Made by a program: the position numbers and the translations under genes. Source: Escherichia coli (GTDB lineage Bacteria > Pseudomonadota > Gammaproteobacteria > Enterobacterales > Enterobacteriaceae). Taken from it: a stretch of DNA of 64,000 bases. How positions within the stretch are numbered: position 1 is the stretch's first letter; each line of letters begins with the position of its first letter. The notes under the pieces were generated by a model. That model had not been told where the DNA came from. It saw only the letters and a program-made list of their open reading frames with translations, and made no database searches. Below, piece after piece: positions 8-4,608 of this stretch. The stretch lies in assembly GCF_013315695.1 (NCBI RefSeq), contig NZ_CP054355.1. One strand, 5' to 3'.

Positions 8-433
8 GTGCTGACGCGGGACATAGAACGGGTGCTGGAGCAAAGCGGGGAAGCCCCGGTCTACGGGCCAAACCTGCGCGCCTCCTGCCGTCGTCTGGAG
101 GATGCCGGCTGGCTGCGTACCCTGCGCGCTCCGAACCTGCAGCTGGCAGTGGAGCTGACGGACGCCGGCCGGGCCGTGGCACAGCCTCTGCTGCCCGCAG
201 GCGGCACTTCTGCCACTGATCTGGCGGTGGAGCTGAACGGCATAACGTATCAGGCCTGCCGTGGGGATTTTGTGGTGCGTCTCGACGGCAGCACCTGTCT
301 GCAGTTATGGAATAAAGAAGGCAGGGTGGTACGCCGGGAGGGCGATCCGCTGGAAGTGGCGCAGTGGCTGCAGGCCTGTCACGATGCAGGAATGGAGGTT
401 CGCGTACAGATAAATGAAAGTGCCGCTCCGTAA
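8..433 (+). CDS. hypothetical protein, 5'-partial (reading frame open to window start)
   Basis: ORF has no in-frame stop upstream of position 8; no recognisable motif. Confidence 0.3.
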   Translation: MLTRDIERVLEQSGEAPVYGPNLRASCRRLEDAGWLRTLRAPNLQLAVELTDAGRAVAQPLLPAGGTSATDLAVELNGITYQACRGDFVVRLDGSTCLQLWNKEGRVVRREGDPLEVAQWLQACHDAGMEVRVQINESAAP

Positions 434-452
434 GAACACGCCTGTGCACGGT

Positions 453-800
453 TTACACATCATCCCATGGTGGCAGCCGGTTAACTTTCCTGCGCCACCA
501 GTGGAAAGAGGCCATGAGCAGTCCGGACAAAAACCCCCCCGTGATACTTATAATAATGGCCTCACCTGCCACCATTCCTGACGGCCCCCAGTAGATAAAC
601 CACATTGCACATCCCCAGGAAATGCCCCATAAGCCCCCCGTCAGCACCGTGACCTGCCAGAACGGCATAAAGGGTAATGGCGGAAGCCGGATACCCAGCC
701 GCCAGAGAATACGCAGAAGAGGAGGGGCATAATTGCTCCGCCACATCTTTTTGCTGTCCATCAGGGCAATGGCCCGGGCTTTTTTCTGCTCAAAAGTCAC
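453..800 (-). CDS. small hydrophobic membrane protein, unknown function
   Basis: 115-aa ORF with Gly/Trp-rich hydrophobic segments typical of a 2-3 TM protein. Confidence 0.35.
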   Translation of the reverse strand: MTFEQKKARAIALMDSKKMWRSNYAPPLLRILWRLGIRLPPLPFMPFWQVTVLTGGLWGISWGCAMWFIYWGPSGMVAGEAIIISITGGFLSGLLMASFHWWRRKVNRLPPWDDV

Positions 801-928
801 AGGAGCACCTCCGTTCCATGATGTAAACGTGACACAGCTTATTGTTATTGATTATTATTATCATGCTGTGGTTATGTTGTCATGCATCAGTACACTGACA
901 AAAGTGCAAAAGAAAGGAAAACTGGCAG

Positions 929-1264
929 ATGAACAGAAAATATTATTTTAATAATATGTGGTGGGGATGGGTGACGGGGGGATATATGCTGTATATGTCA
1001 TGGGATTATGATTTTAAATACAGATTACTGTTCTGGTGTATTTCTCTCTGCGGAATGGTTTTGTATCCGGTTGCAAAATGGTATATTGAAGATACAGCTC
1101 TGAAATTTACCCGGCCTGATTTCTGGAACAGCGGTTTTTTTACTGATACACCTGGAAAAATGGGATTGCTTGCTGTTTATACGGGTACTGTTTTCATATT
1201 ATCTCTTCCGTTAAGTATGATATATATTCTTTCTGTTATTATAAAAAGGCTGTCTGTAAGATAG
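929..1264 (+). CDS. colicin Ia/Ib-type immunity protein (orphan; no colicin gene present)
   Basis: 111-aa hydrophobic protein (MNRKYYFNNMWWGW...IIKRLSVR) matching my recollection of the colicin Ia immunity protein; hairpin plus T-run immediately 3'. Confidence 0.5.
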   Translation: MNRKYYFNNMWWGWVTGGYMLYMSWDYDFKYRLLFWCISLCGMVLYPVAKWYIEDTALKFTRPDFWNSGFFTDTPGKMGLLAVYTGTVFILSLPLSMIYILSVIIKRLSVR

Positions 1265-2702
1265 ACAGCCTGTCTTATATTTTATTTAAATACCCCAGAA
1301 CTTATGCCACAAGAATTATCTAAAAGTTGCCGTTCTACTCCGTTAGTTTGTAGTTCTATCATAGTCTTATTAACTCGATCACGAGGTCTGTATGACGGGG
1401 AAGCTTGCGCTGTAAGATTATATGATAATGCACATATTGTAATGATAGTTGTTTTTATCTTTGTGTTTAATGTGAAAATTTTATAAAGCATATAATGTTC
1501 CCTATTTTTATTTTGTTTATAATTTATTGGTTGTATGTTAAATCTATCATAAGTCTAATGATTAAAATGGTTAGTGGTGTCAGGATTAGTGAAAATAAAG
1601 GATGTAATATGCTATTCTTTCTCTGTAAGTACTTGAGAATACTAAACCATAGTACAAGAATGATTATGTACATGTAGTGAGAATTGGAAAACATAGTTTC
1701 TTCCCGTGTTAATGAGAGTATGTGTTTTTATGTGGGGATATGTACACCCCATATAGATGTATTATGTTATATTTATAATATACCTCGGCAAAATAAAAGG
1801 ATTGTTATAGAAATAGGGAAGGCTATAAAAAAGCTTATATTAAGGTCTGTTTTCTTCTTAGAAAAATAATTCTTTGCTCTAATTATTATAGATGTAATCC
1901 CCCAAACAATAAAAAGAATGGAGCTGCTTGTAATTATTTGATATATCAAAATTGTTTTCCTCTATTTTTGTGTAGATAGATGTTAATGGCACTGGGTGCA
2001 TTTATTCGTAATTTCTTTTTCCATGCTGGGCCAGCAGGAGCATTTGAACAGAAACTTGATTAATCATGAAAACACATCACTTATCGAAGAAAAAAATATA
2101 AACTAACAGAATAACTATAGATGCAGGGAAAGCTAAGAATAAGCTTATAGCTGGGGCTGTTTTTTTGTTGAATTTCCAGTTTGTGACTCTGATTATTACA
2201 GCTATAGTCATCCAGACTATAATTAAAATAGAACTGCCATTGATAAAATCATATTTCAAAATAAATTCTCCTGTATTTGTCACTCAATCGGTGGTTTATG
2301 TGACTATATTCGCAAAAACTGGTCGCAGAAAAGTCCTGTTTTCAGCTTGGAAACCCGGTAATCAGAATAATGGATAGGGGAACAAAAATCTCTGTATAGA
2401 ACGCTCCATTGAGGGAGAGAAAACGTGTCATTTTGACCCGTTCGGTATTCAGAACACACAAAACCGATCGCGCATCGCTTTCGTGCATAGTTATGCAACG
2501 CGCTAAAAACGATTCTGACGCATTTTTCTGGTTCAGCCTGTGTTTCCTTGTCTTTTTGCGTTTTTTGCGTCAGAAAGCGACTGAGGGCGTTTTAAGGGGT
2601 ACGTACAACGGGAGTTATGGTAAATGGATCGGTTTTTCGGGAAGGATCGACAGGATTTGCCGTTGGGTGTAGTGTAAGCGACTGAAAAACAAACGCCCCT
2701 GA

Positions 2703-3401
2703 AATCATGTCCAGATCCGGCAGAACCAGCCTCATGCGCAGTTCTGGCTGGTTTTTGACGTTGATCGCGAGGGGGCAGCGATTGACTGGAGCGACCGGAA
2801 CGCTCCCGCGCCGAACATCACCGTAAAAAATCCTGTGAACGGTCATGCTCACCTGCTCTACGCGCTCAATATCGCCGTGAGAACCGCGCCGGACAGCTCG
2901 GTTAAGGCGCTGAAATACGCCGCTGCGATTGAACGTTCGCTGTGTGAGAAACTTTGTGCTGATGTGAACTACAGCGGACTGATTTGTAAAAATCCGTTCC
3001 ACCTGGAATGGCAGGTGATGGAGTGGCGAGAGGAAGCCTATACCCTCGATGAACTGGCTGATTATCTCGATTTGAGCGCCTCAGCGCGCCGTAGCATCGA
3101 TAAACATTACGGGATGGGGCGAAACTGCCACCTGTTCGAAATGACGCGCAAATGGGCTTACAGGGCGATTCGTCAGGGCTGGCCCGAATTCTCACAGTGG
3201 CTTGATGCCGTGATTCAGCGTGTCGAAATGTACAACGCATCGCTTCCCGTTCCGCTTTCACCGCCTGAATGTCGGGCTATTGGCAAGAGCATTGCGAAAT
3301 ACACGCACAGGAACTTCACGCCGGAAACTTTCGCACAGTATGTGGCTGATACGCACACATTAACGTACGTTTTCGTTCCATTGGCCCTCACCCCCCGATA
3401 A
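2703..3401 (+). pseudogene. ColE2-type plasmid Rep (primase-type initiator) remnant, lacking N-terminus and C-terminal DNA-binding region
   Basis: In-frame translation from the stop at 2700 gives ...FWLVFDVDREGAAIDWSDRNAPAPNITVKNP..NGHAHLLYAL..ICKNPFHLEWQ.., as remembered for ColE2 Rep; no ATG/GTG/TTG start before the GTG at 2835; protein ends early. Confidence 0.55.
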
Positions 3402-3637
3402 CGACCCAGGTAGCGCGCCGTATTCCCCCCGCCGGCCGTTTTCTTCGACATGTACATCAGGCGCGGAACTCATCGGGGCGCGGGAATGAAATCCCATTCA
3501 GACTCCGGATAGATTCAAGCAAGCCCACTTATCGTCAAAATCGGTGTTGCAAAAACGGGAGTGACCATAGATCCGTTTTCCAAGCGGACCCATAATATCG
3601 GCTGGTAAACATCACTCGCTAGTGCATTCTTTTTGTT

Positions 3638-3657
3638 GGTAATGATAATCATTTACA
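3638..3657. promoter_or_regulatory. Fur box upstream of cjrA
   Basis: ggtaatgataatcatttac closely matches the Fur consensus GATAATGATAATCATTATC. Confidence 0.6.
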
Positions 3658-3732
3658 TTCATTCTTTGATGTTTTATCATAATTAATGTTTTGTCAATAA
3701 ATATATGGAAACATATTGTTTCAGATGGGAAT

Positions 3733-4608
3733 ATGAGAAAGTTCATCCTTATTTCTATGATAACGTTAGCTAGTGTTAGTCTGGGAGCCTGCAGACAGAA
3801 TGTCACCATAAAGCAGGATGCGCCAGGGCAGAAAGCTTTCCTGACTGACGGGCAGATTTACGATTTGCACAGTGGCAAAATTATTTCTAGCAGCGAGCTT
3901 TTGGCGGATCTTGCTACCGCTCAACATCTTATTATTGGTGAAAAACACGATAATGCCGAGCATCATCAGATTGAGCTTTGGCTTATTCAAAATTTGCTCA
4001 TCCAGCGACCACAGGGGAGTGTGTTGCTTGAGATGTTGACGTCAGAGCAACAGCCCCGAGTTAACCAAGTTAAATGTTGGCTGAAAGATAATCCTGTGGT
4101 TCGAGATAGCCGTGTTCAGGAACTACTTAACTGGCAAAAAGGGTGGTCCTGGGAGATGTATGGCGACATCGTCATGCAGCTATTACGTGGGCCTTACCCG
4201 CTGCTCAATGCCAACATTGGCCGGGAGCAGATATTGGCACTGTACAAAAAAAACGAATTTCCTAAAGGAAAAAAATCCACTGCACCTGTGGTACAAGAAG
4301 CTCTGCGTGAAACCATCATATCTATGCATGAAGGCAACCTTGAAAGCCAGCAACTGACGTCAATGCTCTCTATTCAGCAGCAGCGGGATCGCTACATGGC
4401 CCGCCAGCTTCTGAGTGCCCCGGTACCGTCGTTGTTGATTGCAGGTGGTTATCACGCGTCAAAAAGCATGGGCGTACCGTTACACATGGAAGATCTTGCC
4501 ACCGGCACCCATCCAGTGGTGTTGATGCTTGCAGAAAAAGGAATGAACATCACAGTAGATCATGCTGACTACGTGTGGTTTGTAGCGCCAGATACAACAA
4601 AAAGGTAA
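3733..4608 (+). CDS. cjrA: ChaN-like haem/iron-binding lipoprotein (CjrA-like)
   Basis: Signal peptide with lipobox-like SLGAC; size and position 5' of a TonB homologue and a TonB-dependent receptor as in the cjrABC-senB cluster. Confidence 0.55.
   Translation: MRKFILISMITLASVSLGACRQNVTIKQDAPGQKAFLTDGQIYDLHSGKIISSSELLADLATAQHLIIGEKHDNAEHHQIELWLIQNLLIQRPQGSVLLEMLTSEQQPRVNQVKCWLKDNPVVRDSRVQELLNWQKGWSWEMYGDIVMQLLRGPYPLLNANIGREQILALYKKNEFPKGKKSTAPVVQEALRETIISMHEGNLESQQLTSMLSIQQQRDRYMARQLLSAPVPSLLIAGGYHASKSMGVPLHMEDLATGTHPVVLMLAEKGMNITVDHADYVWFVAPDTTKR

Follow-up and report, generated by a model that had tools for sequence, protein, structure and literature searches.

Near the start of the 64,000-nucleotide (nt) stretch of Escherichia coli DNA analyzed here (contig NZ_CP054355.1, hereafter the window), a colicin Ia immunity gene, iia, stands without its toxin gene beside about 1.1 kb of AT-rich DNA that, together with its small open reading frames (ORFs), is left unannotated by RefSeq in hundreds of plasmids of extraintestinal pathogenic E. 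coli. The orphan immunity gene is ordinary and documented; the new part is the identity of the DNA next to it. Homology assigns positions 1303 to 3359 to a fragment of a ColE2-type small plasmid and not to debris of the colicin Ia (ColIa) module. The AT-rich block within this fragment is most likely a cut-down module of a bacteriocin/immunity system, what putatively remains of the immunity side of a polymorphic, toxin-like cassette, so far undescribed, which is still intact on 6-kb mobilizable E. coli plasmids and in Salmonella and Serratia. We lean toward reading the whole locus as a composite, an “immunity without toxin” scar formed from two unrelated bacteriocin-type modules. Its structural history, meaning its anatomy, junctions, and origin, is close to certain.

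Origin and junctions of the AT-rich block

A preliminary description of this region, made without database searches, had noted an AT-rich stretch holding only short hydrophobic ORFs, and this is what is found: GC content is 25 to 35% from about position 1100 to 2400, and the flanks are at 45 to 70%. The same description had proposed a comparison of the block with ColIa/ColIb plasmids and suggested a decayed bacteriocin/immunity module. A connection to ColIa fails, as homology to every ColIa plasmid compared ends at position 1305, 41 nt beyond the iia stop codon, and the rest comes from a ColE2-type small plasmid. The module is indeed cut down and most likely of bacteriocin type, but it is not uniformly decayed, with three small genes intact. 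Positions 1303 to 2277 are 95.8 to 96.5% identical to a metagenome contig (L012; L numbers are our handles for the sequences compared), to pMSB1_4I plasmid 5 (pMSB1_4I-5; circular, 6,640 bp), and to pN51a. Homology to the ColE2-type rep leader and rep, at 90 to 99% identity, begins at 2278 with pSCU-387-3, at 2372 with a ColE7-like plasmid, and at 2414 with Col156, and extends up to 3359. The features of the fragment are as follows.

1303-1491, minus strand: start of a C39 peptidase gene (first 63 codons), with a signal peptide and the catalytic-Cys motif NSCGI; cut at the junction with the colicin Ia gene, cia.
1524-1694, minus strand: ORF56, 56 amino acids (aa); ATG start with GGAAG upstream; intact; predicted immunity protein for the type-B toxin variant.
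1773-1949, minus strand: ORF58, 58 aa; TTG start behind GAGGA; intact; paralogue of ORF60 and predicted immunity protein.
1983-2027, minus strand: toxin-gene remnant, the last 14 codons (SMEKEITNKCTQCH) and the stop codon; directly upstream of ORF58.
2077-2259, minus strand: ORF60, 60 aa; TTG start at 2259 behind AGGAG; intact; predicted immunity protein for the type-A toxin.
2277/2278, no strand: deletion joint, located by junction alignment; the genes for a 291-aa and a ~200-aa protein and the upstream region, about 1.7 kb, are gone.
2278-2706, plus strand: upstream/leader region of a ColE2-type rep; 90 to 95% identity to small ColE2/ColE7/Col156-type plasmids.
2707-3359, plus strand: rep pseudogene with Replicase (PF03090, 82 bits) and PriCT_1 (PF08708, 23 bits) domains; in RefSeq “replication initiation protein, incomplete.”
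3360-3394, no strand: right edge of the small-plasmid fragment, truncating rep, whose homology ends at 3359.

A 9-nt microhomology suspected at the cia/small-plasmid junction reduces to 3 nt (TAT) on alignment. The peptidase gene is cut here: a tblastn search of the window with the 218-aa peptidase of L012 matches residues 1 to 65 at 95% identity, and the window copy ends at residue 63, after NSCGI, with the His-bearing part of the C39 domain missing. This copy is truncated at the junction and is therefore dead. The ORF listed at 1282-1491 is a chimera, the last six codons and stop of which are cia DNA read in another frame. At the second joint (2277/2278), the match to L012 on the left runs down to L012 position 2369, and the match to pSCU-387-3 on the right starts from its position 306. 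The deletion endpoint lies 20 nt past the toxin stop codon and 18 nt upstream of the ORF60 start, and the 64-kb window contains neither a cassette toxin gene nor a gene for the 291-aa pore candidate.

The Replicase and PriCT_1 domains and the homologous leader region place the right-hand part among ColE2-type replicons. The replicon is nonfunctional because rep is a pseudogene, with about 190 nt lost near the 5′ end and the 3′ end cut at 3359. The sequence at 3360-3394, which we take to be similar to a Tn3-family terminal inverted repeat, shares 31 nt with the end of L011, a contig of the sort in which Tn3-type tnpR/tnpA adjoin the cassette. The Salmonella and pN51a relatives of the cassette adjoin Tn3-type resolvase/transposase genes, and the cassette therefore also travels as transposon cargo.

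Over positions 900-3700, the differences between the window and pUTI89 and three other plasmids are concentrated in 175 nt of the rep leader (2472-2646). For the three closest plasmids this stretch accounts for 14 to 17 of 15 to 20 substitutions, and for the fourth plasmid it accounts for 13 of 14, a pattern suggestive of patchy gene conversion with coresident small ColE2-type plasmids. Inside the same stretch, at 2598-2625, lies what is presumably a cer-like Xer core, GGTACGTACAA-cgggag-TTATGGTAAAT. A copy in pSCU-479-1 that looked divergent is the same sequence in an assembly full of frameshifts, and NZ_CP030334 (7.6 kb, linear; a Col156 plasmid plus the block), probably an assembly chimera formed via the shared rep leader, was not used.

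Three small genes in the block

Comparison with diverged relatives identifies the three small ORFs as real genes, from conserved families under purifying selection. Each product has two hydrophobic segments around a basic loop. ORF60 and ORF58 are 54% identical, and their codon alignment gives a ratio of nonsynonymous to synonymous substitution rates (dN/dS) of 0.28, with 13 mismatches at first, 15 at second, and 26 at third codon positions; in the five remaining frames of this alignment the ratio is 0.51 to 1.70, and four of the five contain stop codons. Both genes have kept the TTG start and its Shine-Dalgarno sequence, which align at the DNA level. Among orthologues, dN/dS is 0.13 to 0.20 for ORF56 (pSCU-387-3, L011) and 0.30 to 0.47 for ORF58 (L011, L013, L025), in both cases at a dS of >1. 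A 68-aa two-helix ORF at 2077-2283 on the minus strand had been singled out in the preliminary description. The two-helix gene is real, but the true gene encodes 60 aa from the ancestral TTG start at 2259, and the longer form is ORF60 extended over the 2277/2278 deletion joint.

The remnant in front of ORF58 is found by a tblastn search with the toxin C terminus SWKKEMTNKCTQCH (79% identity, E = 1.5e-5), and the ORF58 unit aligns at the DNA level with the toxin 3′ end plus ORF60. A toxin tail before ORF58 is the pattern of displaced toxin-tip/immunity modules. ORF56 was also considered as a third paralogue of ORF58 and ORF60, with BLASTP returning an E value of 1.1 and no match; because BLASTP does not support paralogy, it is treated as a separate family of the same architecture.

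ORF60, ORF58, and ORF56 have no Pfam or NCBIfam match. A word-index protein search with the 68-aa ORF returned only copies of itself, and in HMMER searches of 1.84 billion representative proteins, ORF58 and ORF60 matched only themselves and their own unannotated family. Exhaustive HMMER searches with these two yielded two diverged relatives (P0004 and P0005), the contigs of which led to the intact cassettes.

Intact cassettes in relatives

Intact cassettes are carried by mobilizable E. coli plasmids of 6.2 to 6.6 kb. In L012 and pMSB1_4I-5, the genes encode, in order, a 291-aa protein, a 203-aa protein, the small ORFs of 60, 58, and 56 aa, and a 218-aa C39 peptidase, with signal peptides on the three large products; RefSeq lists the 291-aa and 203-aa proteins as “hypothetical” and leaves the small ORFs uncalled. 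The order 291 / ~200 / small / C39 recurs in E. coli as well as in Salmonella and Serratia, whether the carrier is a small plasmid, a large plasmid, or, in one case, a Serratia proteamaculans chromosome, and the number of small genes per cassette varies from one to three. The cargo slot of the cassette, between mob and rep, is that of colicin E7 in sister plasmids.

The ~200-aa proteins, which we regard as the putative toxins, have four parts: a signal peptide, a strongly conserved acidic stretch (IDDLEYxxxQxMxxxE(M/L)AxT(T/K)G-KAIP) with the presumed pro-region ending in G-K, a variable core that is glycine/alanine-rich and hydrophobic, and a conserved C-terminal domain ending in C-x-x-C-H. 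The 291-aa protein has a signal peptide and is secreted and beta-rich; it may be an outer-membrane pore. The full-length peptidase scores 61 bits against PF03412, and its closest solved relatives are the PCAT / bacteriocin-exporter double-glycine protease domains, which identifies it by similarity as a true C39 member. It is free-standing, with its own signal peptide, and in the periplasm it would trim the pro-region of the toxin. Profile searches of the cassette proteins otherwise left only faint traces, of Gly-zipper (E = 0.03, three of eight members) and PorP_SprF (E = 0.015, one of 13). No literature citing the RefSeq protein accessions of the cassette was found. All database names read “hypothetical,” and neither the cassette, nor the small-gene families, nor the nature of the AT-rich block appears to have been described before.

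Several relatives depart from this arrangement or have further cargo. A 4.5-kb ColE2-type plasmid (L021/L022) carries a type-C toxin gene and a 60-aa two-helix gene without the C39 peptidase; the enzyme may thus be unnecessary or provided in trans. On pN51a, a 152-kb plasmid of a cerebrospinal fluid isolate, a microcin gene of the E492 group (class IIb) lies ~520 nt upstream of the cassette, beside a rep remnant (L028, 4184-4477). The Col156 plasmid p3-LC-1302-2020 (L005, 3430-4600; 5.2 kb, a common type) has, in the corresponding slot upstream of rep, an unannotated 1.2-kb AT-rich cargo (GC, 29 to 38%) containing short hydrophobic ORFs; this cargo could be another undescribed small-peptide module.

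Covariation of small genes with toxin type

Eleven contigs or plasmids supplied loci for comparison, and in these the type of the first small gene downstream of the toxin gene tracks the variable core of the toxin.

Type A core: ORF60 (L012, pMSB1_4I-5, pAF3-3).
Type-A-like core: ORF58/60 family (Serratia plasmid L013/L014; L025/L026).
Type B core: ORF56 family (pSCU-387-3, L011, L023).
Type C core: a different 60-aa two-helix protein (L021).
Serratia proteamaculans chromosomal variant: a 47-aa two-helix protein (L015).

In pAF3 plasmid 3, ORF60 stands alone between the type-A toxin gene and the peptidase gene, and ORF58 and ORF56 are therefore extra modules. The cassettes thus share with class II microcin systems a small membrane protein gene that adjoins and covaries with the toxin, and the small proteins show no similarity to a described class II microcin immunity family. 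The variation in copy number, the covariation with the core, the toxin-tip remnants, and the use of the colicin E7 slot would all fit toxin/immunity pairs with orphan modules. Whether the three small genes encode inner-membrane immunity proteins, one per toxin variant, we regard as an evenly balanced question.

A broader proposal is more tentative, and we hold it at somewhat less than even: the cassette may represent a new class of enterobacterial bacteriocin that would be Sec-exported, trimmed by a periplasmic C39 peptidase, and released by its own outer-membrane protein, with polymorphic cores and matched 50- to 60-aa immunity proteins, and pUTI89-like/ST131-type F plasmids would carry a three-gene, immunity-only array of it fused to an orphan iia. 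If this is true, the cassette is a candidate for a new family of bacteriocins that are exported by an unusual route. The immunity genes of two systems would then have been stacked and the weapons discarded, which bears on the question of toxin loss versus immunity gain (PMC12546727).

The orphan iia gene and the lost cia gene

The ColIa-derived part of the locus contains the following features.

453-800, minus strand: DUF6404 gene (Pfam PF19942, E = 2e-36), the fixed divergent neighbor of iia in ColIa modules; true ColIa plasmids have it at the same place.
829-858, plus strand: candidate promoter-like site upstream of iia; 10 of 12 consensus matches; within the stretch ~99% identical to ColIa.
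929-1264, plus strand: iia, intact, toxin gene missing; 111 aa; RefSeq WP_001080732.
1247-1271, both strands: hairpin of 11 bp, GC-containing, overlapping the iia stop codon; terminator-like score on either strand.
1286-1305, minus strand: cia remnant, consisting of the stop codon, the last five codons (KFWGI), and two bases of the next codon; limit of ColIa homology.

Immunity proteins of the E1 group of pore formers reside in the inner membrane and block the pore-forming (channel) domain of the incoming colicin. The product of iia belongs to this family by its match to PF03526, Colicin E1 (microcin) immunity (31 bits; gathering cutoff, 25). Over all 111 residues it is 98 and 99% identical to the cia-adjacent proteins of pAPEC-O78-ColV and pP15-385-a, with one or two differences, and this near-identity to two cia-linked proteins assigns it to the Ia type, which narrows the colicin Ia/Ib-type assignment made earlier. 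The surroundings agree: pAPEC-O78-ColV matches window positions 584-1305 at 99.2% identity, including the DNA upstream of iia and part of the DUF6404 gene. The terminator attributed to iia corresponds to the terminator-like hairpin, which in ColIa plasmids separates the convergent iia and cia genes. A Salmonella Muenchen plasmid (L003, 5001-5647) has a DUF6404 gene at a distance of 225 nt from a copy of window positions 2279-2356, near a colicin V-family microcin cluster.

The convergent colicin gene is absent, as had been reported for this stretch. The 626-aa colicin Ia ends in ...ANKFWGI, of which the window keeps KFWGI and the stop codon, and a tblastn search of the 64-kb window with the full protein found no match beyond this stump. 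A colicin gene elsewhere on the plasmid had been named as an observation that would overturn the orphan reading; in pAF3 plasmid 2, the 18.3 kb lying beyond the window contains none. The iia gene is an orphan because cia is reduced to five codons, which does not make it any less a member of its family. This orphan reading is already in the literature: earlier work on ST131 H30R1 and pUTI89-like plasmids described the ColIa immunity gene next to cjrABC-senB (PMC4933990, PMC11748317), and orphan immunity genes of E. coli plasmids have been surveyed (PMC12546727).

Host plasmid and distribution

The first 4.2 kb of the window are 99.98% identical to pAF3 plasmid 2 (82,293 bp), from the United Kingdom bloodstream isolate E. 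coli AF3, and the region is of the pUTI89 / ST131-H30R1 kind of F plasmid. Downstream, from position 3691 and ~1.3 kb from the AT-rich block, are cjrABC (ChaN-like, TonB-like, and TonB-dependent-receptor genes) and senB. The intervening DNA contains an unannotated element of ~140 nt (3452-3597) that recurs at 91 to 95% identity in at least 5,000 enterobacterial plasmids, often in multiple copies per record. An Rfam scan of positions 400-3800 at E values up to 1 gave no match.

The 1.7 kb around iia and the AT-rich block is held, at a coverage of at least 80%, by 467 PLSDB plasmids, and the 1.4-kb block at 1265-2700 is present in 452 of 5,426 complete E. coli genomes (about 8%). The producer genes of the intact cassette occur in six of the same 5,426 genomes and are plasmid-borne in every case. 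In each of the isolates AF3 (L029, NZ_OZ547119.1) and MSB1_4I (L027, NZ_LR898878.1), the orphan array on a large plasmid coexists with an intact producer plasmid of 6.2 to 6.6 kb. Since producer and immunity-only plasmids both occur in sequenced isolates, and together in these two, the idea is directly testable.

Proposed history and alternative explanations

The locus most likely arose as follows. A ColIa module lost cia by illegitimate recombination at the 3-nt microhomology, leaving iia with its own upstream region and hairpin. The small-plasmid fragment is joined to the cia stump, with the putative pore and toxin genes deleted, the peptidase gene cut after the catalytic Cys, and the small genes left whole. 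Iia in the inner membrane would block the channel domain of incoming colicin Ia, so that the plasmid would protect its host from colicin Ia producers without the cost of production. ORF60 would confer immunity to type A, ORF58 to a lost relative whose 14-codon tail remains, and ORF56 to type B. If the small genes are transcribed, the host might be protected against up to three cassette-toxin variants while making none, and four orphan immunity genes would be stacked within 1.4 kb.

Several observations weigh against this account, and many of them equally favor the alternative that the AT-rich block is inert debris hitchhiking on a successful F plasmid, with small ORFs that are unexpressed and intact only as short targets after a recent event, and with iia as the sole functional gene. 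All larger genes of the fragment are broken. The upstream region of the operon is deleted, and no consensus promoter was found upstream of ORF60; thus, the small genes may be silent. Between the window and L012, substitutions are no rarer in the ORFs (19/720) than in the spacers (10/255; P = 0.29), which gives no sign of continuing selection in the window lineage, and the changes in ORF58 are seven nonsynonymous to one synonymous. Among the plasmids compared, the block is invariant except for one single-nucleotide polymorphism, which fits recent common descent, so its wide occurrence may be hitchhiking; one natural plasmid has IS1 within ORF58. Nevertheless, none of the three small genes has lost its start codon, its Shine-Dalgarno sequence, or any of its length, whereas four independent deletions or truncations hit their surroundings. 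The large deletion took exactly the two producer genes, ending in the short gap between the toxin stop and the ORF60 start, and minus-strand read-through from the rep-leader region is possible. We therefore consider the debris explanation unlikely, although it is the most probable of the alternatives.

Other difficulties concern the cassette. Canonically, G or A precedes the glycine at the cleavage site, but the putative site here has T or K in that position. Searches of Pfam, NCBIfam, PADLOC, and PDB gave nothing significant for the 291-aa, ~200-aa, and small proteins, and the AlphaFold2 models of the 203-aa and 291-aa proteins, built on shallow alignments of 8 and 13 sequences, have predicted local distance difference test scores of 38.7 and 27.9 and are unusable; the toxin, pore, and immunity roles are consequently predictions from gene context. 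The two-helix proteins might instead be accessory parts (release or holin-like peptides, membrane anchors, or chaperones), and the ~200-aa protein a surface or fiber subunit exported by a Fap-like route. The lack of any cassette match to a known bacteriocin or immunity family is in keeping with this, as are weak matches of the peptidase to the models of FilB, from a pilus system, and FapD, from an amyloid system, Fap being a system in which the substrate is Sec exported, the C39 peptidase is periplasmic, and the pore is in the outer membrane (PMC5557850). These matches are far below the cutoffs, however (FilB, 59 versus 475; FapD, 34 versus 330), and small genes that number from one to three, covary in type with the toxin core, and have a toxin tail before the extra copy do not behave as a fixed machine part. 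Furthermore, the cassette occupies the colicin slot of ColE2-type plasmids, and L021, without a peptidase, retains the small gene directly after the toxin gene. An accessory role is thus improbable.

It is far less probable still that the block confers immunity to colicins Js and Z entering via the neighboring CjrBC and so offsets the sensitivity that cjrBC confers. The ColJs genes were reportedly placed in a low-GC region by Smajs and Weinstock in 2001, a point in its favor along with the position of cjrABC only 1.3 kb away. It is also the case that cjrBC sensitizes cells to both colicins (PMC6668396). Sequence comparison largely refutes this explanation: the block and cassette have no protein or DNA similarity to cjl, cja, and cji of pColJs, and Cji has 129 aa and Czi 151 aa with four membrane segments, whereas the block proteins have 56 to 60 aa with two.

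Comparison with known systems

The left part of the locus corresponds to the cia/iia operon of ColIa and ColV-ColIa plasmids in Iia itself (98 to 99% identity), the DUF6404 neighbor, the upstream DNA, and the intergenic hairpin; it differs in that cia is five codons long and the partner DNA is foreign. As in the orphan immunity genes surveyed previously (PMC12546727, PMC4933990, PMC11748317), an immunity gene lies on a large conjugative virulence plasmid, its toxin gene absent or heavily truncated, with the truncation common to many plasmids. Unlike those, the window adds three putative immunity genes of an unrelated system, of which we found no description in those papers. The small plasmids that carry the cassette share rep, leader, and mob with ColE2/ColE7-type plasmids at 87 to 99% identity, and in both the cargo lies between mob and rep. 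However, the cassette cargo is not a nuclease colicin/immunity/lysis operon and is transcribed away from rep.

Class II microcin systems have a double-glycine leader, a C39 protease, and a small membrane immunity protein. The cassette resembles microcins V, H47, and E492 in its glycine-rich hydrophobic toxin core, its C39 peptidase, and the 50- to 60-aa two-helix protein that follows the toxin. In contrast, there is no sequence similarity, the mature cassette toxin would have ~150 aa and a Sec signal, and the peptidase is periplasmic instead of forming the N-domain of an ATP-binding cassette (ABC) exporter. The cassette has no ABC transporter or membrane-fusion protein, and in their place is the 291-aa beta-rich protein.

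The only precedent found for a periplasmic C39 enzyme together with an outer-membrane channel is FapD/FapF (PMC5557850). Like the Fap operon, with its FapF pore and FapD, the cassette combines a Sec-exported substrate, a periplasmic C39-type peptidase, and a dedicated, here putative, outer-membrane protein in one operon. Its peptidase scores 33.7 bits on the FapD model, with a cutoff of 330, and its cargo is polymorphic and paired with small membrane proteins. No relatives of FapF, FapC, FapB, or FapE were detected, and the 291-aa protein matches no family or solved structure. Because the FapD and FilB scores are far below the cutoffs, the likeness to Fap is one of analogy and not of membership.

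In contact-dependent inhibition (CDI) cdiA-CT/cdiI loci and in Rhs loci, a toxin-immunity pair is followed by extra immunity genes with toxin 3′ fragments. The protein families and the export route of the cassette differ from those of CDI and Rhs, and in the window even the full toxin gene is deleted, but the arrangement is the same as in their orphan arrays: extra putative immunity genes, one of them preceded by a toxin-gene 3′ fragment.

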